A stretch of 48,828 bases of DNA from a virus. Taxonomy: Duplodnaviria; Heunggongvirae; Uroviricota; Caudoviricetes. The translations under genes and the position numbers were made by a program. Position 1 is the first letter of the stretch. Each line of letters opens with the position of its first letter. The notes beneath the pieces are model-generated. The model saw only the letters and a program-made list of their open reading frames with translations. It ran no database searches and was not told where the DNA came from. Location of the stretch: IMG/VR virus record IMGVR_UViG_3300045988_154803, one strand, 5' to 3'. This document shows, one piece after another, positions 2,853-48,785 of this stretch.

Positions 2853-3193
2853 TCATAAAGCAACAAATTACGCGGTAATCGCTTAACGCAGTTTTACTAC
2901 GTTAAATGAAACACTACACCCAGTTACCATCTAAAACAAGGTTTTCTCATAAAAAAACCTTCAAATCGTGGTTAATCGATCAATAAAAAAACAATACTCA
3001 ACTTTTTGCCAAACGAACATCCCGGCCAGGACTTCCATAATATTCGCCGATATGCCACTGCTTAAGTTGAGTAATCTTCTCCAACTTAACTCCCATAGAG
3101 TCCAGTTTCTGCCATGTTTTCGGTTGTATGTGCTTCATTATCCGCTCTGAATATCTGAATACTGCTCGTAATCGCATGGCTTCTCACTACAGC

Positions 3194-3637
3194 TTATATA
3201 TGTTCACGACTGGACTTCCAGAATATCCACGCCAGATCAACATTCGGGTCCTGGTAATTCATCCCTTCGTTGGCACGAAGCAATAATGTTTCATGGTCTT
3301 TATCACCCGCATGAAACCTGACAAGTGCTTCGAACTTTTCGCGACCATCATCCGGCACTACCGGCTCTGGTTGGATAGTGACGTTGGCAAAGGCAGCACG
3401 CAAACCGGCCTTAATTTCCTCTACTTCATCAGCGCCTAGCGATGAATCTGACAATGCGTGATGGAATGCGTAAGCCATGTCGTCGTTTACTGCAACCGGC
3501 TCGACTTCCAGCGCTGCCAGAGCAATTCGTGCCAGTTCTTCCGCTTCTTCTGCTGGCAGTACAACGTTGCTACTAGGTCCGTATGTTTCGCGCCACTGCT
3601 TGATTGTCAGTAGTCGCTCTTTGGTAATAGTAATCAT
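3194..3637 (-). CDS. Hypothetical acidic protein
   Basis: 147-aa ORF in early operon; no motif recognised. Confidence 0.45.
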   Translation of the reverse strand: MITITKERLLTIKQWRETYGPSSNVVLPAEEAEELARIALAALEVEPVAVNDDMAYAFHHALSDSSLGADEVEEIKAGLRAAFANVTIQPEPVVPDDGREKFEALVRFHAGDKDHETLLLRANEGMNYQDPNVDLAWIFWKSSREHI

Positions 3638-4619: not shown

Positions 4620-5274
4620 TTACCCATACCCACGGGTTAGATAGCCAGTTCTCTTGCCCGTAAATACCGCGCCAGATATCACCAAAACCAACACGATAAA
4701 CAGCTTCCGGCGGCGTAATCTTGTACGTTGCCGGAGATGCGCCTTCCGCTTTGGCATCTGCCTCGCTCATGTCATGCAGCCGCTCCACACGCACGTCGGT
4801 AATTTCCAGCAAAATTCGCGATGCCCATCTCGGCATGTGAATTGACGGGGTCCAGCCCTCAGATGGCTTGCTACTATCTGAGTAATCAGCCTTGTAATCA
4901 CACAGTTCAGAAGCCAGAGAGACACCATCTTTGATTTCCTGAATAACATCGTCATCCAGCCAAAAAGCGTTGAATGTCTCACGTACCCATATGCGATCAC
5001 CAACGTTACCGAACGGGCATAAGCCATGCTCAGGTGCATCCATAACGTGGGTATAGACACCATTGCGTTTCTTTGTCGGTTTACTGATAACCAGGCAGTT
5101 ATCGGCCCTGACATTTTTTACAGGTCGACGAGTCTGCGTCTTCCTGCCTTCGAGGATGGCTCGGACCATCTCATCATTAAAAATCATGCCGCGCTCTTTC
5201 ACCTTGCTCACTTCAACTCCTCCCGACGACGTTCCTGAAGCTCTAGCATTGCAGCTCGGAAATCCTGCCACCAT
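4582..5274 (-). CDS. Hypothetical phage protein (possible ASCH/PUA-like fold); start probably internal at MIFNDEM
   Basis: Motif MIFNDEMVRAILEGRKTQTRR recalled from ASCH-like phage proteins. Confidence 0.45.
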   Translation of the reverse strand: MVAGFPSCNARASGTSSGGVEVSKVKERGMIFNDEMVRAILEGRKTQTRRPVKNVRADNCLVISKPTKKRNGVYTHVMDAPEHGLCPFGNVGDRIWVRETFNAFWLDDDVIQEIKDGVSLASELCDYKADYSDSSKPSEGWTPSIHMPRWASRILLEITDVRVERLHDMSEADAKAEGASPATYKITPPEAVYRVGFGDIWRGIYGQENWLSNPWVWVIEFKRIQGANSE

Positions 5275-5573
5275 TCCTCATCTGCAACGGGGGTGTTTCG
5301 CTCCAGCACCTTGTCCGCATCAGCGATCAGGTTTGCCAGACTATTGTCTGAAATCTTCGTTACCGGAGTCGTTGGTTGCTCAACCTGCCCGATAGGTTTT
5401 ATCGTGCTCAAAAGGAGGCGACGGCGGGAAAGTGGTGCCCCACAACGACGGCCATCTTCCTTGCGATATGTTTCTTTCGGACCAACACACCAGGTTGTCG
5501 GCGTTTCACGCAACTTCACTCTTTTCTCACCATCATTGGTAATGATTATTCCGGTATGGGTTTTGATGCTCAT
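5208..5573 (-). CDS. Hypothetical protein
   Basis: 121-aa ORF; overlaps neighbour in a different frame. Confidence 0.35.
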   Translation of the reverse strand: MSIKTHTGIIITNDGEKRVKLRETPTTWCVGPKETYRKEDGRRCGAPLSRRRLLLSTIKPIGQVEQPTTPVTKISDNSLANLIADADKVLERNTPVADEEWWQDFRAAMLELQERRREELK

Positions 5574-5872
5574 GCCACAGCCCCTCTCAACGGCTTAACT
5601 TTGGCTAATAAGGTGTTAAACAACATGGAGTTAGGATTCATGCCAAATGGCAATTCCGGTTTAGCGGAGTAGTACAGGCAACCATTTATTTTCCTGGTTG
5701 TTATCTGTCCTTCGGCAACCATGCTTCTCAGTCTGCAACGCATAGAGTTCTGCGACACACCAATGTGCTCCGCGATTACGTCCACTTTTGAACATGGGTG
5801 ATCGGTCAGGAAATTAATCACATCTTGGGGGTTAATAATTTTGCGTTTCATTGTCGAGGCGTCCTTATACAT
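5570..5872 (-). CDS. Small winged-helix-like DNA-binding protein (candidate regulator)
   Basis: 100 aa; helix-turn-helix-like VIAEHIGVSQNSMRCRLRSMVAEG; preceded by AT palindrome promoter. Confidence 0.4.
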   Translation of the reverse strand: MYKDASTMKRKIINPQDVINFLTDHPCSKVDVIAEHIGVSQNSMRCRLRSMVAEGQITTRKINGCLYYSAKPELPFGMNPNSMLFNTLLAKVKPLRGAVA

Positions 5873-5897
5873 TTATATAAATATATAATTCTATATA

Positions 5898-5917
5898 CGG
5901 CGGGAGACGTCCCGCCG
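5898..5917 (-). terminator. Hairpin terminator after DUF3560-like gene
   Basis: cggcggga-gacg-tcccgccg perfect 8-bp stem followed by AT-rich palindromic tract. Confidence 0.45.
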
Positions 5918-5928
5918 TAGGCTTACTG

Positions 5929-6996
5929 TCAGGCTTTCAATAGCGATTCTTTTAGATATCGGGCATCAGCCAGGGCGTTTGGAGTAATCTTGCGAACCCA
6001 TGCATTACGGGTTGGACTCCACTTAAAGGCGCGTGATTTAAGCAGCGAACGAATGTTTGCCTCTGGTTTGCCAGGGAAATAAAACAGGATGCGGTTATCC
6101 TCTGGATCTATCTCCATAGAAAAGCCGTCGTATTCTTCGCGCTGTGCTCCTGTTACAGACTTGACCGATTCAAGCTCCTTAATACGGCTCTGTAGTCGTT
6201 TGATTTCGGCGTTATTGTTGCTCAGTGCGTATGAAGGGAATCCGATGCGCCCACAGAAATCTCCGGCCAGTAACTCTTTGGCTTCGCTTTCTGTAAACCT
6301 GAGATCGATTAATGCAGAAAGCTGCTGTAATTGGTCTTTTTTGTATTTGCGAATGGCCTTATTTGCGGCCTTCATTTTGACGTGTGACTTCATGCAGCCT
6401 TGCAGCTTACGAAGCAACTTAAATAGCGCATCAGGATCATCAGACGAAATTCCATTACGACCAACACCTGCGGCTTTGCTCTCGTAGTGTGATGCTTTAC
6501 TTTCGCATTCAACAAACGCTTTTCTTAATAACGCATCAGCTTTAGACAAACGGCGGCGATGGCCTTTCGCGCTATAATGGTCAACTAAAATCGGCTGGCC
6601 TAACGGGATCACATCCAACAGGTCATGCGCTCGCTTATGCGCTACCGCACCTTCTTTTCTGGCTTTTTCTGCACGAGCAATATATCGGGCAAGACGCGCG
6701 TTCTGGCGTTCCTGATAGGTGTTTACGTAATCATCTCCGCGCTGCTGCTGTTCAAGCCATGCTTTGCGCAGATCTTCTGTTACGTCCACCAGCTCCGCAG
6801 GGATACAACCAGTTTGGGCTTCATAAGAGTAACCATCCTCATAGATGCGCCCATCGTCTTCAACAAAGAAAAAGGTTTCGTGCTCATCGCTTTTGACCAT
6901 ACGACCATTAACATGGCGTAATAGGTAGCCAGTATCAGTGCTTAACAGGCTGTTAGGGTTGTTGATCCAGTCAGAAATAATTTCTTGTTTATTCAT
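5929..6996 (-). CDS. DUF3560-like protein (unknown function; family seen on plasmids)
   Basis: 355 aa; motif GQPILVDHYSAKGHRRR recalled from DUF3560; first gene after leader cassette A. Confidence 0.5.
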   Translation of the reverse strand: MNKQEIISDWINNPNSLLSTDTGYLLRHVNGRMVKSDEHETFFFVEDDGRIYEDGYSYEAQTGCIPAELVDVTEDLRKAWLEQQQRGDDYVNTYQERQNARLARYIARAEKARKEGAVAHKRAHDLLDVIPLGQPILVDHYSAKGHRRRLSKADALLRKAFVECESKASHYESKAAGVGRNGISSDDPDALFKLLRKLQGCMKSHVKMKAANKAIRKYKKDQLQQLSALIDLRFTESEAKELLAGDFCGRIGFPSYALSNNNAEIKRLQSRIKELESVKSVTGAQREEYDGFSMEIDPEDNRILFYFPGKPEANIRSLLKSRAFKWSPTRNAWVRKITPNALADARYLKESLLKA

Positions 6997-7112
6997 CAGA
7001 TTTCTCCGGTTTAACCAGGGCGGGTATCGCTCGGTTTCGGGTATAACCTTAGGAAATTTTTTCCCACCTGTAAAGCGCTTTTTATATAAATCTATAATTA
7101 TATATTTATAGA
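6997..7112 (-). promoter_or_regulatory. Conserved promoter/5' leader cassette, copy A
   Basis: Near-identical to 16461-16580 and 48667-48785; ends at the start codon with GGAG RBS; contains TATAATTATA palindrome. Confidence 0.6.
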
Positions 7113-7165
7113 TTTTCGATGTTACCGATGTCTACACACCATCAAAACAGCTCAAAATGACACTT

Positions 7166-7543
7166 TTACTCTCTTCGCTTTTTCAAATAGTCGACAACAT
7201 ACGCCCTGGCTTTTGCCAGCTTCCGGCGATACTGTCTGAGACTAAGAGAAAGGGCGTGGGCTTTATCAATATGCGGTGCATTTATGTCGAGGCCCCGAAT
7301 CTCCCACGCCCCGTATTCAATTCGGACAACCAGCGCCGCAGTCTCATCAACTACCGTGAGGGCCGTCACCGCTCCCTCGATACTGGTTTCCAGTGAGTCA
7401 TTTGGTGCGCCGCCCCCTCCGGTAAACTGGCAGCGCGTAACCATCATCATTTCTAACATCGACGCGAAACCGCTACGGGCGTTGCAGCCATTGCGCACCC
7501 ACAGCGCCCATAGCTCAAACAAGCTATCCAGATCGCGTCTCAC
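7166..7543 (-). CDS. Possible Q-like antiterminator (Phage_antitermQ-like)
   Basis: 125 aa; N-terminal LFELWALWV resembles LERWGAWA start of small Q-family proteins (recalled); sits immediately upstream of leader cassette A. Confidence 0.4.
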   Translation of the reverse strand: MRRDLDSLFELWALWVRNGCNARSGFASMLEMMMVTRCQFTGGGGAPNDSLETSIEGAVTALTVVDETAALVVRIEYGAWEIRGLDINAPHIDKAHALSLSLRQYRRKLAKARAYVVDYLKKRRE

Positions 7544-9689: not shown

Positions 9690-10346
9690 ATGAAAAGCAA
9701 CGACGAGAACATCAAGAAAGAAATAGGTCTGCGCATTCAGACTCTACGGAAACAATCCGGCATGACTGCCGGAGATCTCCAGCAAGTCACTGGAATAGGC
9801 TTAAGCACCTTGCAGAACTATGAGGCCGGATTAAGACAACCATCTATACCTGCCATCAAGAAAATCGCGCACGCCCTGAAAGCATCAGCGCCTTATATCG
9901 CGTGCTTAACAGATAACCCGTTCCCACCCCAGAATACTAACGCTCCTGTTATTCCTGGGCTTGTAGCTATAAAAAATGACATAGCATCGCACGCCGGAGA
10001 AAAGCCAGTGCTGGCGATAGAACAGGAGATTCTACGAAGCAAGAACATCAACCCATCGTCTCTGTCAGTTCTCCAGAGCAACGATGAGTTAATGTCACCA
10101 ACAATATCCCCAGGCTCCCAAGTCCTGATTAATACAGACGATACAGAGATTCATGAGGGGATCTATGCCCTTGAAGACAGAAATGGCCCGGTTGTTTTGA
10201 GGCACTGTAGAGTCATACCGGGTGACAATGCTGTTATGCTGTCAACCGAAAGGGATGCTGAAATGAACACTAAGCATCTGAATAACGAGGAATTTAAGCG
10301 TTATAAAGTTCTGGGCCGCGTAGTTAGTGTTGTCAACTGGTTATGA
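9690..10346 (+). CDS. CI-like phage repressor (XRE HTH + S24/LexA-like C-terminal domain)
   Basis: N-terminal IGLRIQTLRKQSGMTAGDLQQVTGIGLSTLQNYEAG; C-terminal domain alignable to S24 fold. Confidence 0.8.
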   Translation: MKSNDENIKKEIGLRIQTLRKQSGMTAGDLQQVTGIGLSTLQNYEAGLRQPSIPAIKKIAHALKASAPYIACLTDNPFPPQNTNAPVIPGLVAIKNDIASHAGEKPVLAIEQEILRSKNINPSSLSVLQSNDELMSPTISPGSQVLINTDDTEIHEGIYALEDRNGPVVLRHCRVIPGDNAVMLSTERDAEMNTKHLNNEEFKRYKVLGRVVSVVNWL

Positions 10347-10948: not shown

Positions 10949-11617
10949 ATGGAGTCTCGACAAATGACTATCTCTGTAGGTATTTTCAACGGAAAAGGCG
11001 GCGTAACCAAATCAACAATTGCCCGTGCTTTAGCAGTTGCTTATGCAAAGGCTGGCTGGAATGTATGCCTGATCGATATGGATGTGCTTAACGGAACGGT
11101 AACGCGTTGGGTACAACGCAGAATGGCCAACAATATCGAACCAGCAATCGCGGCGCAGCCGTGCGGCACACCATCACAAGTCCAGAAAATCATCGAATCA
11201 GAAGTATACGACCTGGTTATCGTTGATGGCGGTGCCTACGCATCTGAATCAGTACCGAAGCTCTCTGAATTTCTGGATATGGTTATTTTGCCAACCAGAT
11301 TCTCTACCGATGACCTGGAAACCACCGTTAACACAGCTCACGGCATCGTTAAAAAGGGTGTACCAATCAAGAAAATTTGCATGGTGTTTTCCGGCGCGGC
11401 TGAAAACGAAGCTGACTATATTGAAGCCCAAGAGTACCTGGCTAATACGCCATACTTTGTTGTCGATAAGTACATTCCCCACAAGCCAGCTCTGAGCAAA
11501 GCTCAGGATAAGGGCTTAAGCCTCATTGAGTGCTCATACGTTGCGCCACGCAAAAAGGCAGACGACGTTATTCAGGGGATTATCAACCAGCTTGAGGCTC
11601 TGACTACTGCCGCGTAA
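10949..11617 (+). CDS. parA: ParA-family partition ATPase (small, type Ib-like); likely start at 10964
   Basis: Deviant Walker A GKGGVTKST; ~217 aa without N-terminal HTH. Confidence 0.85.
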   Translation: MESRQMTISVGIFNGKGGVTKSTIARALAVAYAKAGWNVCLIDMDVLNGTVTRWVQRRMANNIEPAIAAQPCGTPSQVQKIIESEVYDLVIVDGGAYASESVPKLSEFLDMVILPTRFSTDDLETTVNTAHGIVKKGVPIKKICMVFSGAAENEADYIEAQEYLANTPYFVVDKYIPHKPALSKAQDKGLSLIECSYVAPRKKADDVIQGIINQLEALTTAA

Positions 11618-12129: not shown

Positions 12130-12153
12130 ATAAAAAAGCCCCCGAAGGGGCCT
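12130..12153. terminator. Hairpin terminator (U-run on minus strand, A-run on plus)
   Basis: gcccccgaaggggc stem-loop flanked by A6 on plus strand. Confidence 0.5.
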
Positions 12154-12725
12154 AATCGCTACTTGCTGCTAATGTTTATCGTCACATTCAGAGCGTTATC
12201 AGTAATCTTCCAACCCTCCCCATGTGGCGTAAACAAAGCTCCAGTAACAACGATAAAAATACACATACAGTATTTTTTCATTGTATGGCCCTTACAGGCC
12301 GTTTCACGGCATCCCCACCGACGAAAACAACGCGAGAGCAAGCACGGCTGCTTGTGCTTGCATGTACGGCAACGGAGAATCCTCCCCTAAAGTCGGTGCC
12401 CGGGTGCGAATCGGCGGGAAGGTCCACAGGTATTTTACGATTATTTTAAGATTAGTAATAGGAAAGAAATTAAACGAAAAAACTCGTTTATTTTCACAAA
12501 ATCAGTAACCTACCCACAATCTGTGAGTTTGCAGGCACAACAAGAACCACAATTTTTTGAAGCATAATAGTGGACTATTATTACCTTTTGGGTAAAATTA
12601 ACTTGCTGCTTGTGCTTGCGTGGTTGTTTATACAACAACGTAATGCTGAAAGGACCGCGAATCCGATCAGCACGAAAGAACCGTCCTCAATAGGGCGGTT
12701 TTTTTGTTTCTGCCTACCAATAAAC

Positions 12726-12738
12726 CCACGCTATGTGG
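12726..12738. promoter_or_regulatory. Fourth CCAC-N5-GTGG operator-like palindrome
   Basis: CCACGCTATGTGG abutting candidate -35 TTGTCT. Confidence 0.5.
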
Positions 12739-12773
12739 TTGTCTCTGTTAAAATCCCGCCGTATTGACATGAA

Positions 12774-12873
12774 TGCGCCATTGGTGGACACTTTCCGAGC
12801 CGTAGCAAAATCTACGGCCGGGATTGGAACCCCGATAATCATCATGGCGCATACCGCGTTAGCGGTTTTTTTA
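12774..12873 (+). ncRNA. Candidate small RNA (~100 nt) ending at intrinsic terminator
   Basis: Candidate promoter TTGTCT-N17-TATTGA; internal hairpin ccgtagcaaaatctacgg; terminator ccgc-gtta-gcgg + T7 at 12854-12872. Confidence 0.3.
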
Positions 12874-13037
12874 TGCGTAAAGCACTGCTACACCCAAATT
12901 ATGGTGGGGCGTGCGGGGGAGTCGTAAGACTCGCCGGATTCCATGGTGACCGGTAGTTCCAACCCTGTACGTCTCACCACCCAATGATTGGAACCAGACG
13001 GTGGTGAGTATCCTTAACCTTTAAGGGAACTATCACC

Positions 13038-13229
13038 ATGACAAACTTACCCCATGACTATTACGTCAACCTCGTAAAGATCCTTCTCAAGAAAGCCTCA
13101 TACGCCGATAAACTCCGCCTGGCTGAAATCATCGAGCGCGAAGCTATGCGCATCGCCAGCAACGATAACGCTGTTTCTGACGCAAAAATCTCCCTCGTAA
13201 CCAAAGTAGTTATGGGAGGTACAAAATGA
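13038..13229 (+). CDS. Small protein upstream of antirepressor
   Basis: 63-aa ORF with stop/start overlap (ATGA) to antirepressor. Confidence 0.4.
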   Translation: MTNLPHDYYVNLVKILLKKASYADKLRLAEIIEREAMRIASNDNAVSDAKISLVTKVVMGGTK

Positions 13230-14368
13230 AAACGCTTCCGACCGTTAACACCCTACAGCCTATCCTGCATAACCAGATCCCCGTTATCACTAGTGAACTT
13301 CTGGCGCAGTTATACGGAACAAAAATCAAAAACATTTCTGATAACTTTCTGAACAACACGACGCGATTCATAGCCGGAAAGCATTACTTTAAAATTGAAA
13401 AAAACGAATTACGCGAGTTCAAGAACAGACCTGAAACAATCGGGTTAGTTGGTAAAAATGCCCGCTCCCTAATTCTCTGGACCGAACACGGAGCAGCCCG
13501 TCACGCCAAAATGCTCGAAACCGATCAGGCTTGGGATGTGTTCGAAAAACTGGAAGACTGCTATTTCAACCAGAACGCACAAACGGCCGCGACCGTAACC
13601 GTCTCACCAAACAATGCTCGTGAGGTTGTCGATACGCTCAACGCCAAACCGATGTTTTACATTAAAGTGTGCAACAACGAGCCACTCACAACCTCAGCCG
13701 ATGTTGCCCAGGCATTCAGCACCACAAACAATTCCATCGTTATGGCCATCGATGCGTTACGCATTCCTCGCACAGCTGCGGCGCGTCATTTCTTTAAAGA
13801 GCAACGACCGTTGGAAGGAAGCGACCGCGAAATAACAATCTATCGCATGACAAAAGACGGATTTACCTTGCTCATGGAAAGTATCGACGGTCCAGGCGTG
13901 AAGGATATCAAGCTGGCCTACATTGAAGCCTTTAACGCTATCAGCAGCGTGTTAAAAACACAGTACGAGCGCGATCTGGCTAAACGACTGTACCAGGAAA
14001 AAACGATTATCCGCGCGGCAACAGAGCATAATCGGCTATTAACGGAACCGAACTACAGGAAGGAACTAATCAAGGAGTTTGACAAGGCAACAGGGAAAAC
14101 CAAAGCGGCGCTAAGTCTGCCAGCAATGACTCAGGAAAATGTGATATCAGCCTTACTTCTTGATCTGCTCAGAAACGCCAGAGCACTTATCAGCTTTGAC
14201 GAAAACCTGAATCCTCAGCTCAAGCTACTACCACCGACAGGCAAAGTAGTCGACCAGGCTGATCACAACAGCATACTCAGCGTACTGGATGCAAACCTGC
14301 CAGCCAGGACACTACAGGATCTGATAAAAACATGTGCTGATAAGCTGGCACAGAAAAGCAGACCATAA
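13226..14368 (+). CDS. ant: Antirepressor-like protein (ORF6N/KilA-N-type N-terminal domain + Rha-like domain)
   Basis: N-terminal IPVITSELLAQLYGTKIKNISDNFLNNTTRFIAGKHYF; central PLTTSADVAQAFSTTNNSIVMAIDAL. Confidence 0.7.
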   Translation: MKTLPTVNTLQPILHNQIPVITSELLAQLYGTKIKNISDNFLNNTTRFIAGKHYFKIEKNELREFKNRPETIGLVGKNARSLILWTEHGAARHAKMLETDQAWDVFEKLEDCYFNQNAQTAATVTVSPNNAREVVDTLNAKPMFYIKVCNNEPLTTSADVAQAFSTTNNSIVMAIDALRIPRTAAARHFFKEQRPLEGSDREITIYRMTKDGFTLLMESIDGPGVKDIKLAYIEAFNAISSVLKTQYERDLAKRLYQEKTIIRAATEHNRLLTEPNYRKELIKEFDKATGKTKAALSLPAMTQENVISALLLDLLRNARALISFDENLNPQLKLLPPTGKVVDQADHNSILSVLDANLPARTLQDLIKTCADKLAQKSRP

Positions 14369-14627: not shown

Positions 14628-15103
14628 CCCTTTACCGGAGTTCCGGCCCCTTCTCAAAAGCATCAAAAAAAGCTCGAGATCGAGTACCGGAACTCATGCC
14701 ACCAGATAGCTCCACATCGTTTCCAATGCTTCGCCGCCGTGTGCGCCCTGTGGCCCACAATCATGCCATTGGTCGTCTGATATACCTTCTTCTGCTCATA
14801 GAGCACAGGCGAGTTGTCGCACTCCTGCCTTTCTCAGACTCGACTTAGTTTAGATCGCTGTTCCTGGCTTGCGTCAGCACACTTTCCCCTTGTACGCATA
14901 CCCGCGCGCAACTTCGCCCAAAAACACCGAACCCAACGAAGTGGCAAAGACAACGACGCGAGCGTGAGTCTGAAATGGGCACCAGTAAAAAAGGGGTTGC
15001 AGGCGCAAAAAGATTTGATTATCTTTAGACGCAAGAAAGCCGCCCCAATCAAGAGGTGTCTTTTTAAATCCAGCCTACCAAGCAAGATTTAAATTTCAGA
15101 CTG

Positions 15104-15130
15104 AAAACCGCCCGGCAAGGCGGTTTTTGT
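15104..15130. terminator. Bidirectional hairpin terminator
   Basis: ccgcc-cggcaa-ggcgg with A-run before and T5 after. Confidence 0.55.
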
Positions 15131-15176
15131 CTTTCTGGCGCTTACATTACACCACCATAAAACGATCCGTAAAGGA

Positions 15177-15449
15177 TCATTTGATCCCTTGTTCCAATTC
15201 TGCCGACACTTTAACCTTTTCCCATACAAGGGTTTGCAGCCTTAACAGAATCGCATCTTTATCAAGGTGTGAAAGATCCTTAACCATATCGTCAAACGAC
15301 AGAACGCGAATGGCCATCTCAATGACCCTCGGCGGCTCCCCCTTCTCATATCGCTTATATGTAGCCAACGATATCCCAAACTCTTCGGCTGCTCGCTCCT
15401 GCGTCCAGTTCATCCCACGACGCCATAATTTCAATTCGTAACCCGTCAT
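15177..15449 (-). CDS. XRE-family HTH transcriptional regulator
   Basis: LKLWRRGMNWTQERAAEEFGISLATYKRYEKG. Confidence 0.6.
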   Translation of the reverse strand: MTGYELKLWRRGMNWTQERAAEEFGISLATYKRYEKGEPPRVIEMAIRVLSFDDMVKDLSHLDKDAILLRLQTLVWEKVKVSAELEQGIK

Positions 15450-15550
15450 TACATCCTCTACCTTTCCCTAGATATTCAATAAATTAGACATAGCCACTCA
15501 CGACAAAATAAGATGTATTAACAATCCAATCTTTAGGCTTTAGGTAAAAA

Positions 15551-15976
15551 ATGAGTTCATCTGCTTTTGTCACCGTGGTCACTGGTGTAAGTGTTTTTGT
15601 TCTAGGCCAACTCATCGTCAAAGGAGCTATTGAGCCTTACATTTCATTCAGGGAACAACTAGGGAAAATATCCAATCTGTTATTATGTAACCAAGCAAAA
15701 ATAGTGAATCCTGGCTCGAACTTAAAGCCAGAAATCATTCATGATCTAAAAGATTCCGCAGCACAGTTAATGGCGAAATATTCCACTTTACCTTTCTATA
15801 TCAAAAAGTTACATATCGGCTTTCGTCTTGTTCCATCAGCCACCGAGATTCTTGGGGCAGCTCAAAATTTGAACTATATAGCGTCAATACATGAAGGTAA
15901 GACTGGGGAGAATCCATCTAAGCATCTCGAAGAGATTGGCCATATGCTCAAAATACCAACTACCTATTCAAGCTAA
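15551..15976 (+). CDS. Membrane-anchored hypothetical protein
   Basis: 141 aa; N-terminal hydrophobic helix AFVTVVTGVSVFVLGQLIV; divergent from HTH regulator. Confidence 0.45.
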   Translation: MSSSAFVTVVTGVSVFVLGQLIVKGAIEPYISFREQLGKISNLLLCNQAKIVNPGSNLKPEIIHDLKDSAAQLMAKYSTLPFYIKKLHIGFRLVPSATEILGAAQNLNYIASIHEGKTGENPSKHLEEIGHMLKIPTTYSS

Positions 15977-16045
15977 CCCAATGTAAGTTATCGGCTTGCC
16001 CCACAATAAGTTATCTATCTTCAAACGCCCCCTATATTAACACTC

Positions 16046-16070
16046 GCAAAGTGTCAAAATGACACTTTGC
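16046..16070. terminator. Perfect 11-bp-arm palindrome between convergent genes
   Basis: gcaaagtgtca-aaa-tgacactttgc. Confidence 0.5.
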
Positions 16071-16079
16071 GCATTGTGT

Positions 16080-16460
16080 TTACTTAACGAGGAATAAAAA
16101 TGGTTTATTGTTCGGCGGTGTAATCGGGGCTGGCTCGCTTTTGCTCATGCGATCAGTGTACCAGGCCAACTCCTTGTCAAAGTAAGCCTGATTAAAATAG
16201 GCCATGAATGTAGTTTCAAATCCATAACGACCGCTAATACGCAGCATCTGATTGCCGTTCTCTGTTTCCAGATATACCTGGGCACGTTCCTGATTCTCCT
16301 TCAGCCAGGTTAAAGCCTCATCGCATGAGGACACACGATACTCATCATCGTAGCAGTCATCGATGCGGCTTGAGGAAGAACGGCAAATCACGCCAACAGA
16401 ACCAGCCAGGATAGTTTGAATTTTAAGGAAAGCGTTTTTGCGGATTTTAATCATGCTCAT
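16080..16460 (-). CDS. Hypothetical protein (first gene after leader cassette B)
   Basis: 126-aa ORF starting exactly at end of conserved leader. Confidence 0.5.
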   Translation of the reverse strand: MSMIKIRKNAFLKIQTILAGSVGVICRSSSSRIDDCYDDEYRVSSCDEALTWLKENQERAQVYLETENGNQMLRISGRYGFETTFMAYFNQAYFDKELAWYTDRMSKSEPAPITPPNNKPFLFLVK

Positions 16461-16580
16461 CGGGTTATCTCCGGTTTAACCAGGGCGGGTATCGCTCGGT
16501 TTCGGGTATAACCTTAGGAATTTTTTTCCCACCTGTAAAGCACTTTTTATATAAATATATAATTATATAATTCTATGAGC
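16461..16580 (-). promoter_or_regulatory. Conserved promoter/5' leader cassette, copy B
   Basis: Near-identical to copies A and C; palindrome TATATAATTATATA at 16556-16569. Confidence 0.6.
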
Positions 16581-16623: not shown

Positions 16624-16923
16624 TCAGATGTTAAACGCTATTCGTTTTCCTGTGGGAAGCTCAACATCCAGGCTTAATTTGCCTCCCATAGCTTCAACGT
16701 AACGCTTTAATGTCGCCAGCTTTAAATCATTTCCGCGCTGCTCCAGCTTTGTTACTGCTGGCTGGCTTATACCCATCGCCTCAGCAACCTGTTTTTGTGA
16801 TAACTGGAGTTCTTCACGCATCATCTGCAAGCCGACCTCAAGAATCATCTCATCTGCCATTTCTTTAATTCGCGCCTGGCTTTCCGGTGAACGGCTGGCA
16901 ATCGCCTCATCTAATGTTCTCAT
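16624..16923 (-). CDS. higA: HigA-like XRE HTH antitoxin
   Basis: QKQVAEAMGISQPAVTKLE HTH; immediately downstream of and overlapping toxin gene. Confidence 0.65.
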   Translation of the reverse strand: MRTLDEAIASRSPESQARIKEMADEMILEVGLQMMREELQLSQKQVAEAMGISQPAVTKLEQRGNDLKLATLKRYVEAMGGKLSLDVELPTGKRIAFNI

Positions 16924-17276
16924 TACTTGCTCTCCAGTGTGTTCAGATGTGCTGCAAACTCATCCTCAGCTATACGCACCAGTTTTTCATAAAACCGCTT
17001 ATCGTTACTTTTGTCTCCTGCACAAAGAACGATGGCCCGGCGAATCGGATCGAACGCATAAAAGGCTCTTATCGGACGGCCAGAAAACTGAACGCGAAGC
17101 TCTTTCATATTTTTGTACCGAGAACCTTTTACGGTATCGGCATATGGCCTGGGTAACTCAGGTCCGTAAACCTGTAGCTTTTTCAAATCAGCCAAAACCT
17201 TTTCCTGAAGAGCGTCTTCTTGCTCATTTAGCCAGTCGTCAAATCGCTGGCTAAAAAGTACCGTCCACATGCTCAA
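16923..17276 (-). CDS. higB: HigB-like RelE/ParE-superfamily toxin (Gp49-like)
   Basis: 117 aa; toxin-first arrangement with HTH antitoxin; sequence pattern recalled from Gp49/HigB family. Confidence 0.65.
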   Translation of the reverse strand: MSMWTVLFSQRFDDWLNEQEDALQEKVLADLKKLQVYGPELPRPYADTVKGSRYKNMKELRVQFSGRPIRAFYAFDPIRRAIVLCAGDKSNDKRFYEKLVRIAEDEFAAHLNTLESK

Positions 17277-18732: not shown

Positions 18733-19713
18733 TTAATGTTGGAGTGATTTCCAGGTCTTTCTTAGCCTGTTATAACGCTGCTCAACGAGGGATCGTAAAT
18801 ATGCAAGGTCAGCACCTGGATACATGCCATCAGCAAATTCCTGGCTAACCTCTCTAGTGATTTGATGACGAAGTTCGGCCTCTCCCTTTTCCTGAACAAG
18901 ACGCGCAGCTCTCTCCGCTGCTTTCTGTTTTGCCTTTATCTCTCTGGCCGTCTTCCTCTGACGCCATACATTCTCCATCTGCTCCTGAATAACAATACGC
19001 TTATAATCAGCCTCCGTTATCGCTTTTTTAAGCCGTTCGCTATTCTTCGCATTGAAGTAATTAAGTTTCTGGCTAACCGCACGTCTCCATGCTTGTTCAG
19101 TAATACCAACGATTTCCAGCAGTTGATCACGAATCTCTATTTTCGCTGGCCAATACTGTTTATTCACCCGATCCCAGCGACGTTCATAATCAATAAAACC
19201 TAACGCTTTCAGTTGCGACAACGCCCTTGTACAGCGCGTTATAGACTTGTTCCCAGCTTCGGATACGGTAGACAGGCCGCAAAAATCAGCCAACGCCTCA
19301 GCACTGGCCAGAACCCGCTTAGAAATGATGTTTACATGGTGCAAAATCGCAGCAATCACAGCATTAATCGCCCGACGACGATGCTCGTTTATCCGGCGTT
19401 TCCGCTCTGACGGTTGATTAACGTAGAACGCAACCTCACACGTAAGATCACGACCATTAATGCGCTGTAAAGCATCAGATAACACCAGCGGCAGCTTGTG
19501 CGTATGGTGCTTTGGAGGCTGGAACTCCGGCGACAAATTACAAACGTAAGCTGAACGTAGAGACGGCATTGGTCTATCCATATGTTCGCTCTTGCGTCCA
19601 CGGAAAACCAACGTATAATGGGAGTTGTCGAGGCGCCCATGGATTGTTTTTGTTGGTTTTCCGTGGATGTCGCAAGAAGCCCGCAGATTTATCTGCGGGC
19701 TTTTTGTTTCCAT
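18733..19713 (-). CDS. repA: IncFII-type RepA replication initiator (RepA1-like); true start possibly internal
   Basis: RRRAINAVI...GLSTVSEAGNKSITRCTRALSQLKALGFIDY aligns by eye to R1/R100 RepA1 block RRRAIDALL...GLATESAAGKLSITRATRALTFLSELGLITY (recalled). Confidence 0.8.
   Translation of the reverse strand: METKSPQINLRASCDIHGKPTKTIHGRLDNSHYTLVFRGRKSEHMDRPMPSLRSAYVCNLSPEFQPPKHHTHKLPLVLSDALQRINGRDLTCEVAFYVNQPSERKRRINEHRRRAINAVIAAILHHVNIISKRVLASAEALADFCGLSTVSEAGNKSITRCTRALSQLKALGFIDYERRWDRVNKQYWPAKIEIRDQLLEIVGITEQAWRRAVSQKLNYFNAKNSERLKKAITEADYKRIVIQEQMENVWRQRKTAREIKAKQKAAERAARLVQEKGEAELRHQITREVSQEFADGMYPGADLAYLRSLVEQRYNRLRKTWKSLQH
19679..19710 (+). terminator. Plus-strand intrinsic terminator antisense to repA 5' region (candidate CopA-like RNA 3' end)
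   Basis: gcccgcag-atttat-ctgcgggc followed by TTTTTGTTT. Confidence 0.4.
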
Positions 19714-19894: not shown

Positions 19895-20449
19895 TCAATG
19901 ATTCCCAGCCGGAAACCTGCGGTAAAGCGTGGATAAGGTAACATCGAAGATAATCGCTATCCGCTTACGTGAAACACCATTCGCAATAAGCCTTCCGATC
20001 TGTTCCCATTGCTCTGGTGCCAATTTTGAGCGGCGTCCTCCTATCCTGCCGTTAGCCCTTGCCACCGCCAATCCTGCACGCGTTCTTTCAATCATATTTT
20101 CCCGCTCCATCTCTGCGACTGCACTCAGCATCGTGTAGGCAAAGCGGCCAATTGAAGTGCTAATTTTTATCCCTTCCGTAATCGAAATAAACTCAATGTT
20201 GTTTGATAAAAAATGGTTAAGTAAATCAACAAGATGAATCAGAGAACGCCCCATTCGGTCCAGCTTCCAGACAATAACCGTATCGCCCGGCCGTAACACC
20301 TTAAGTAGCTTATCAAGTCCTGGTCGTTTTGATTTAGCACCGGATATTTTATCTTCAAAAATCTGGTCACATCCTGAACTCCTGAGCGCCTCCAGTTGTA
20401 ATTCCAAATTCTGGTCAAAAGTTGACACCCTCGCATAACCATATTGCAT
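19895..20449 (-). CDS. Gin/Hin/Cin/Pin-family serine DNA invertase
   Basis: 184 aa; YARVSTFDQ catalytic Ser motif, WKLDRMGRS, C-terminal HTH; alignable along full length to Mu Gin as recalled. Confidence 0.95.
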   Translation of the reverse strand: MQYGYARVSTFDQNLELQLEALRSSGCDQIFEDKISGAKSKRPGLDKLLKVLRPGDTVIVWKLDRMGRSLIHLVDLLNHFLSNNIEFISITEGIKISTSIGRFAYTMLSAVAEMERENMIERTRAGLAVARANGRIGGRRSKLAPEQWEQIGRLIANGVSRKRIAIIFDVTLSTLYRRFPAGNH

Positions 20450-48666: not shown

Positions 48667-48785
48667 CGGGTTATCTCCGGTTTAACCAGGGCGGGTATCG
48701 CTCGGTTCCGGGTATAACCTTAGGAAATTTTTTCCCACCTGTAAAGTACTTTTTATATAAATATATAATTATATAATTCTATGAC
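48667..48785 (-). promoter_or_regulatory. Conserved promoter/5' leader cassette, copy C
   Basis: Near-identical to copies A and B; palindrome TATATAATTATATA at 48762-48775. Confidence 0.6.

Follow-up and report, generated by a model that had tools for sequence, protein, structure and literature searches.

Whether two divergent genes that share a short spacer form one functional unit is the question raised by positions 15177-15976 of the virus record IMGVR_UViG_3300045988_154803. The window (the whole stretch of 48,828 nucleotides that was analysed) is a ~48.8-kb circular myovirus-type phage-plasmid of Escherichia coli, and a preliminary description made from its sequence alone had read this locus as a compact regulator-effector pair of the exclusion or abortive-infection (Abi) kind. 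Both open reading frames (ORFs) are found exactly there: a 90-residue XRE/RstR-like helix-turn-helix (HTH) regulator, hereafter HTH-90, on the minus strand (15177-15449), and a gene for a 141-residue (141-aa) protein on the plus strand (15551-15976), divergent from each other across a spacer of 101 bp. HTH-90 exceeds the 23-bit cutoff of Pfam HTH_3 over residues 6-40 (29.8 bits, E 6.1e-7), and the 141-aa protein has a single hydrophobic 19-mer at residues 5-23, in agreement with the XRE-type assignment and the one N-terminal transmembrane (TM) helix of that description. The described setting among plasmid maintenance genes also holds, with a HigB-like toxin-antitoxin pair, genes for RepA and ParA and a C4/antirepressor region nearby. 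The pairing itself does not hold, as the two genes are distributed independently and their arrangement comes from the insertion of a 575-bp cassette (15459-16033) that carries the 141-aa gene. We consider it fairly probable that this cassette is an autonomous mobile moron beside a resident regulator, and that it encodes an inner-membrane protein with a role in mobile-element conflict.

Evidence for this comes from the presence and absence of the cassette among related elements. A megablast search of PLSDB with positions 14800-16500 found 62 related plasmids, of which 12 carry the whole stretch; in the remaining plasmids the match is split in two and passes over the 141-aa gene. The locus is present in 72 of 5,426 complete E. 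coli genomes, 13 of which have the 141-aa gene. HTH-90 is therefore present where the 141-aa gene is missing in 50 of the 62 plasmids and in 59 of the 72 genomes (~80% of the related elements), and the gene is likewise missing from three plaque-forming Yersinia phages, vB_YpM_39, vB_YpM_41 and vB_YpM_44 (~49 kb), which are 98% identical to the window across 24 kb of virion genes. Across all these elements devoid of the 141-aa gene (~50 plasmids, 59 E. coli genomes and the three phages), HTH-90 is 98-100% identical, and its close copies (at least 95% identity) are confined to the present phage-plasmid lineage. Judged by these comparisons, HTH-90 is a backbone gene of the phage-plasmid.

The ends of the cassette are defined by comparison with pHN68-3 and vB_YpM_41. 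In the empty allele, as in pHN68-3, HTH-90 lies 64 bp downstream of a 126-aa backbone gene on the same strand (16080-16460 of the window, minus strand; phrog_8090, function unknown). Reading of the junctions revealed that the cassette replaces 8 bp (CTCGCACA) of this allele, with flanks that are 98-99% identical between the filled and empty forms; the ribosome-binding site of HTH-90 (GAGGATG) and a 12-bp palindrome are retained beside it. The GC content of 15450-16033 is 38.7%, compared to 44.4% for the window and 47.3% and 45.1% for the flanking genes. A third allele occupies the same place in vB_YpM_41 and vB_YpM_44, where a ~317-bp element similar to a miniature inverted-repeat transposable element (MITE) possesses inverted repeats of 27 bp at its termini (GGGGTTCCGTGGGCATTTCTGCGATAA, with GGGG first) and is flanked by a duplication of 5 bp of the target (ATAGC), features that are typical of the Tn3 family. 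This element (3153-3474 of the vB_YpM_41 stretch examined, ~15450 in the window) indicates that the intergenic spot tolerates insertions. It splits the start codon of HTH-90 from the Shine-Dalgarno sequence, and as this allele occurs in plaque-forming phages, intact translation signals of HTH-90 may be dispensable for lytic growth.

The cassette brought only the 141-aa gene and a predicted sigma-70-type promoter of its own, and was inserted between the 126-aa gene and HTH-90 in the opposite orientation. The promoter-like element (TAGACA, 18 nt, TAAGAT; 15485-15514, plus strand) was found by consensus scan with 9/12 matches. The same element, TAGACA-N17/18-TA(A/G)GAT, is retained in 12 of the 13 enterobacterial contexts, 30-36 nt 5' of the conserved MSSS start and despite flanks that otherwise have nothing in common; in the thirteenth, the -35 element has been lost at a recombination junction. 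The 141-aa ORF is a real gene under purifying selection, given ratios of nonsynonymous to synonymous substitution rates of 0.12-0.19 against six homologues and 0.12-0.46 over all pairs. A tblastn search located it on 347 plasmids (264 conjugative, 24 mobilizable and 59 non-mobilizable) and in phage D6, and it stands solo on at least 335 plasmids. No homologue of HTH-90 was found among its neighbours in the contexts examined, and an all-against-all comparison of ~15 contexts yielded no conserved partner gene, the only match being an 84/85-aa convergent ORF in one pair of close relatives. The independent distributions, the solo homologues and the own promoter together lead us to conclude that the divergent arrangement was created by cassette insertion. 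Taken together, the alleles and homologues show an insertion with defined ends, a conserved promoter, inheritance as a single gene and selection on its product, and they indicate that HTH-90 is not the dedicated regulator of the 141-aa gene.

Two readings of the genes as a matched pair have to be set against these distributions. In the first, HTH-90 and the 141-aa protein would be a co-evolved exclusion or Abi module, with the XRE protein as repressor or sensor and the membrane protein as executor; the divergent genes, the 101-bp shared control region, the hairpins on both sides, a TM helix such as many Abi effectors possess and the surrounding maintenance and toxin-antitoxin genes would all suit it. 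However, HTH-90 is kept without the supposed effector in most related elements, the 141-aa family lacks HTH-90 in every other context examined (D6, IncF, IncX1 and Salmonella plasmids, and a Chromohalobacter prophage), the cassette promoter is conserved where HTH-90 is missing, and neither the backbone palindrome nor a half-site of it recurs in the spacer, so that we regard such a module as very improbable. In the second, a membrane-depolarising toxin of 141 aa would be neutralised by HTH-90 as an XRE-type antitoxin, in line with weak sub-threshold matches of HTH-90 to the MqsA and HipB antitoxin families and with a locus full of toxin-antitoxin genes. This is the least credible reading of all: the genes are divergent and form no single operon, each is stably kept without the other in hundreds of replicons, and a solo toxin would be lethal, which contradicts a gene that stands alone on so many plasmids.

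The hairpins around the locus, which the preliminary description took for terminators on both sides of the pair, exist on both sides, but the right-hand one is not specific to the pair. On the left, a terminator-like hairpin (15102-15129, 11-bp stem, 5 GC pairs) has an A-run before the stem and a T-run after it, and so could work in both directions; it is common to HTH-90 on the minus strand and the upstream c4/antirepressor operon on the plus strand. On the right, the perfect 12-bp palindrome (16045-16071, CGCAAAGTGTCA-AAA-TGACACTTTGCG, with a 3-nt spacer) is a backbone element that is unchanged in relatives without the 141-aa gene. All alleles have it in the stretch from the stop of the 126-aa gene to HTH-90, and in the empty allele it precedes the ribosome-binding site of HTH-90. 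It has no T-run on the strand of these two genes, and may therefore be an operator or RNA element rather than a terminator. There is no hairpin in 15977-16033, and the cassette thus seems to lack a terminator of its own; the resident palindrome, which comes shortly after the 141-aa gene and has a T-poor tail (CATTGTGTTT), could terminate its transcription. Altogether, six terminator-like sites were found in 2 kb, compared to 1.9 ± 1.6 in shuffled sequences.

These features also bear on a secondary coupling, in which the pairing would be accidental and recent, but HTH-90 would now bind or interfere with the spacer, or read-through from the 126-aa gene would run antisense to the 141-aa gene, so that expression of both genes would have become linked, in this lineage alone. 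The insertion parted HTH-90 from the 126-aa gene and the palindrome, no promoter for HTH-90 reaching 9/12 was found in the 101-bp spacer by consensus scan, and the missing T-run on the minus strand of the palindrome makes antisense read-through possible; a weak antisense promoter-like site was also found at 15804-15777. Against it, the spacer contains no repeat, palindrome, copy or half-site that matches the backbone palindrome, hence no operator-like repeat is common to both, and all arguments for the coupling come from consensus scans at chance level. We therefore consider it unlikely, and retain the reading of an independent cassette beside a resident regulator.

Further analysis of HTH-90 placed it among the common small regulators of mobile elements. 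In addition to HTH_3, it passes the threshold of Pfam HTH_31 (3.6e-6) and falls in phrog_6962 (1.5e-45), whereas the match to NCBIfam RstR (NF041951; 2.6e-8) scores 34.1 bits, under the cutoff of 80. Its profile thus assigns it to HTH_3/XRE, related to the RstR family but not a member of it. The only match in PADLOC-DB v2 is mad1 (0.026). A total of 3,782 plasmids, most of them conjugative, carry homologues at 31-53% identity; examples are the leading region of IncI1 R64 (one record names the gene ygeA) and plasmids of the IncL pOXA-48 type, on which the homologue is part of a co-directional operon. Others are found in Klebsiella and Erwinia phages and as RstR of CTXphi. Small XRE/Cro-C1-type repressors, namely CTXphi RstR and plasmid leading-region HTH genes, share with HTH-90 the N-terminal HTH_3 domain, the size and 31-47% identity, and HTH-90 too sits in a maintenance/immunity region. 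YgeA of plasmid F, for which no equivalence to HTH-90 is claimed here, is the subject of a separate study (PMC9849209). In the empty allele, HTH-90 and the 126-aa gene probably form an operon; no promoter-like site reaching the scan threshold was found on the minus strand in the spacer of that allele. The 90%-identity protein cluster that holds HTH-90 also lists the unrelated 126-aa protein, even as its representative, which is probably a clustering artefact or the effect of a fused gene call bridging the 64-bp spacer.

The 141-aa protein is predicted to be a bitopic inner-membrane protein. Its hydrophobic segment (residues 5-23, AFVTVVTGVSVFVLGQLIV, encoded by 15563-15619 on the plus strand) has a mean Kyte-Doolittle value of 2.23, compared to 0.75 for the next best segment, and begins at a median position of 7 over 181 family members. 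Lysines and arginines average 0.36 in the N-terminal flank and 2.27 in the C-terminal flank over these members, and by the positive-inside rule an N-out/C-in orientation with a cytoplasmic C-terminal domain is predicted. The family-wide conserved columns are G12 and Q20, both in the TM segment, followed by P29, L45, P95, N108, L133 and Y139, and the close relatives have in common a C-terminal IPTTYS motif. AlphaFold2 models were obtained with a shallow alignment (pLDDT of 79) and with a more diverse one (pLDDT of 88.6 and pTM of 0.77), and both comprise the same helices at residues 2-46 (the TM helix continuing into the bundle), 60-78, 97-114 and 123-133. The cytoplasmic domain is thus modelled as a four-helix bundle that ends in the conserved IPTTY motif. 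The conserved glycine and glutamine inside the TM helix suggest helix-helix contacts, by which this helix might mediate oligomerisation or binding to another membrane protein. A role as holin or lysis protein was rejected: holins and an endolysin are annotated ~13 kb away in p48, an E. coli plasmid nearly identical around the locus, no Pfam or PHROGs holin match was found, and most family carriers are non-phage plasmids.

The family proved to be much larger than its close relatives. A word-indexed protein search returned enterobacterial relatives only (56-99% identity), whereas an exhaustive profile search against 1.84 billion cluster representatives at 50% identity gave 705 matches at E<=1e-3, 125 of them at E<=1e-10. 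Among the best 150 of the 705 matches, nearly all are 130-160 aa long and most are aligned over most of their length; every name attached to the family proteins is "hypothetical". In a broader survey of contexts, limited in reach, the close alignment returned five genomic and nine viral loci, and the diverse alignments offered no sufficiently conserved stretch as a query. In phage D6, the homologue lies between humD and phd/doc; on the IncFIB ColV plasmid pECOS88, between IS1 and a 500-aa ORF; on pJIE186-2, near the microcin J25 genes; and on microcin C plasmids, beside the mcc genes. An IncX1 plasmid carries it near DinQ-like toxins and a resolvase, Salmonella and E. coli plasmids carry it beside phd/parE or Abi_2 with ParA and resolvase genes close by, and on a mobilizable plasmid it sits ~1.5 kb downstream of an Abi-family gene, with two ORFs between, and upstream of an integrase. 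In a P2-like prophage of Chromohalobacter, it lies between tail-fibre-assembly and sheath/tube genes, together with a HEPN protein, a 268-aa neighbour and a DUF1508 protein. Metagenomic contigs place homologues with integrases, toxin-antitoxin genes or ordinary metabolic genes.

Several further features accompany these contexts. In alleles at 60-70% identity, CTGGAC-N14-GTCCAG forms a conserved inverted repeat ~40 nt upstream of the -35 element, overlapping the stretch directly before TAGACA; it may be an operator, and is missing from the window and D6 alleles. LexA control was rejected, as the CTGT-N7-ACAG sequence that accompanies the promoters in other alleles is wrongly spaced and does not occur in the window. 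In Chromohalobacter nigrandesensis, the slot (4896-7513 of the stretch examined, with the HEPN-domain protein at 5554-5970 and the 268-aa ORF overlapping) looks like a small accessory or defence islet. A helical protein of ~160 aa with an N-terminal TM anchor recurs near 141-aa homologues on pECOS88 (5326-5805, minus strand) and on Salmonella plasmids (6022-6525, minus strand; both in stretch coordinates). Identity between the two copies is 54%, and the protein is absent from the window. No relationship to the 141-aa family was detected by hhalign (probability 5%).

By these sequence features, the cassette fits the definition of a moron. Three of the four hallmarks are found, namely presence or absence between backbone genes, a predicted promoter of its own and a deviant base composition; a terminator of its own is the exception. 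Well-known phage morons include Z/fun of P2, located between tail-fibre and sheath genes, gp15 of HK97, and lysogenic-conversion genes of the lambda rex/sieB type. The cassette resembles them in its own promoter, its insertion between backbone genes, its variable presence and a GC content lower than that of its flanks, and several exclusion morons encode membrane proteins, as it does; moreover, a family member occupies the tail-fibre/sheath slot of a P2-like prophage. They differ in that the 141-aa protein has no sequence or fold similarity to characterised moron products (PHROGs gave only phrog_7512 and BFVD nothing), that carriers of the family are mostly plasmids, and that the cassette seems to lack a terminator of its own.

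Following this reading, the 141-aa protein would be made constitutively from its own promoter during plasmid carriage and would act at the inner membrane, where it probably either oligomerises or binds a membrane component, be it of the host or incoming. A role in mobile-element conflict, such as superinfection exclusion or abortive infection, seems likely in general terms; that the protein is specifically a superinfection-exclusion or Abi factor is a tentative proposal. Thus, while the regulator-effector module of the preliminary description is rejected, the function it attached to the pair survives for the 141-aa protein as a suggestion that the present results neither exclude nor evidence. 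Membrane-spanning exclusion effectors are well known, among them Sp and Imm of T4 and SieA of P22, and Sp of T4 and Sim of P1 act in the periplasm. The 141-aa protein is alike in being small, membrane-anchored and encoded by temperate elements, in accessory regions with Abi, toxin-antitoxin and HEPN genes. However, TM-containing Abi and exclusion effectors mostly work with a sensor partner, whereas the 141-aa family is always solo and matches no PADLOC model, and its soluble domain is predicted to be cytoplasmic, unlike the periplasmic Sp and Sim. Systems in P2/P4 hotspots also have TM partners (PMC9122126); the P2/P4 hotspot papers make no mention of the 141-aa family or of the tail-fibre/sheath slot, and literature searches under the family accession numbers and the PHROGs identifier returned nothing relevant.

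A number of results weigh against the reading of an independent conflict cassette. Across the region, two promoter-like sites were found against 3.4 expected, hence no excess, and the cassette promoter is itself only a 9/12 consensus match. The N-out/C-in topology and any oligomerisation are predictions only. Profile searches, which the preliminary description had proposed as a check on the 141-aa protein, gave neither housekeeping nor defence homology: the sole result in PHROGs is phrog_7512 (2.8e-74), of unknown function, and no match was obtained in Pfam, in NCBIfam or, at E<=1, in PADLOC-DB v2. A Pfam scan of 46 diverse family members yielded scattered chance matches with no shared family, a sequence-profile search of the PDB gave nothing below E = 0.015, and Foldseek detected no fold relative of known function (best E of 0.9 in BFVD and 0.29 in PDB). 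Several distant homologues lie beside ordinary metabolic genes, and the defence neighbours are anecdotal, with Abi genes within ~2.5 kb in three of ~15 contexts and HEPN in one. A newly acquired link of HTH-90 to the cassette promoter is possible as well.

Some of these points suit another explanation, that the 141-aa protein is an accessory membrane factor outside phage/plasmid conflict, for instance a modulator of envelope stress, cell division or membrane physiology by which extrachromosomal elements would be carried better, or an immunity or adaptor protein serving some other plasmid function. Its gene is found mainly on large conjugative plasmids of the IncF, ColV and microcin types (264 of 347) and less on phages, some distant homologues are chromosomal with metabolic neighbours, and similarity to the defence families of PADLOC is lacking. 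The housekeeping proteins ZipA and YhcB also have an N-terminal anchor and a cytoplasmic helical domain; the shared topology is an analogy only, as the Pfam scan of the 46 members gave nothing relevant to either protein and no direct homology comparison was made. The patchy, cassette-like spread, the low GC content and the position in moron slots and accessory regions next to toxin-antitoxin and Abi genes would be expected more of a conflict gene, although they are not decisive. We hold a role outside conflict to be possible yet somewhat doubtful, and keep the conflict cassette as the preferred reading.

As a pair, the locus is an ordinary finding, an example of an inserted cassette that gives the semblance of a regulator-effector module, and a moron beside a backbone regulator is a known kind of arrangement. 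The useful outcome is a pointer to a fairly large, uncharacterised and unannotated family of single-gene membrane proteins in positions typical of conflict genes, whose carriers include ColV/IncF virulence plasmids and P1/D6-like phage-plasmids. More speculatively, the 141-aa protein could represent an unrecognised single-gene, membrane-anchored anti-phage or anti-plasmid family of ~700 clusters at 50% identity without a Pfam model. In the same speculative vein, this family, whose range would extend from Enterobacteriaceae to Halomonadaceae and Acidobacteriota, might travel as a promoter-bearing cassette between conjugative plasmids, phage-plasmids and the moron slots of prophages. Were the protein indeed an exclusion or defence factor, it would be a very compact and widespread system that helps to explain competition between plasmids and phage-plasmids in E. 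coli. Isogenic elements that differ in the cassette occur in nature, and some are plaque-forming phages, so that its function is directly testable.

The element that hosts the cassette combines a virion module with plasmid functions. The circular E. coli plasmid p48 (NZ_CP023368, 48,774 bp) is 99.9-100% identical to the window over the queried 1.4-1.7-kb stretch around the locus, and its annotation contains a myovirus module that is complete, with terminase, portal, ClpP-type protease, capsid, sheath, tube, tape measure, baseplate, tail fibres with an invertase, holins and endolysin. The lysogeny and plasmid part of the window encodes a CI-like HTH protein (9690-10346, plus strand) and ParA (10949-11617, plus strand) on one side of the locus, and a Gp49/HigB-like toxin with an HTH antitoxin (16624-17276, minus strand, Pfam), an IncFII-type RepA (18733-19713, minus strand) and a Hin-like invertase (19895-20449, minus strand) on the other. 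The myovirus module together with the ParA, RepA and lysogeny genes identifies the element as a phage-plasmid. A pSLy3-type assignment was rejected, the pSLy3 group being SSU5-like with sizes of 85-134 kb, and the element lies outside those curated phage-plasmid groups that were checked. A tRNA gene is located at 959-1031 on the minus strand (Rfam tRNA, 67 bits).

Upstream of HTH-90, an Rfam scan detected the RNAs ryfA (12132-12427, minus strand), isrK (12799-12872, plus strand) and C4 (12897-12984, plus strand, antisense RNA), and an ORF6N/Rha antirepressor-like gene was assigned by Pfam (13226-14368, plus strand). A 63-aa ORF lies between the C4 RNA and this gene, the two ORFs together occupying 13038-14368, so that the run of ryfA, isrK, C4, ORF and antirepressor spans 12132-14368. 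The arrangement resembles the c4-icd-ant immunity (immI) region of P1, and it converges on HTH-90 at their common hairpin. In addition, a leader of ~75 nt (GGGAAAAAATTTCC-TAAGGTTATACCCGAAACCGAGCGATACCCGCCCTGGTTAAACCGGAGA..ATG) occurs three times on the minus strand, directly 5' of different minus-strand genes: at 16461-16530 before the 126-aa gene, at 48667-48736 before an 89-aa ORF, and at 6997-7066 before a 355-aa ORF (5929-6996). It has no Rfam match at gathering thresholds, and may serve as a promoter/operator common to these genes or as an RNA leader.

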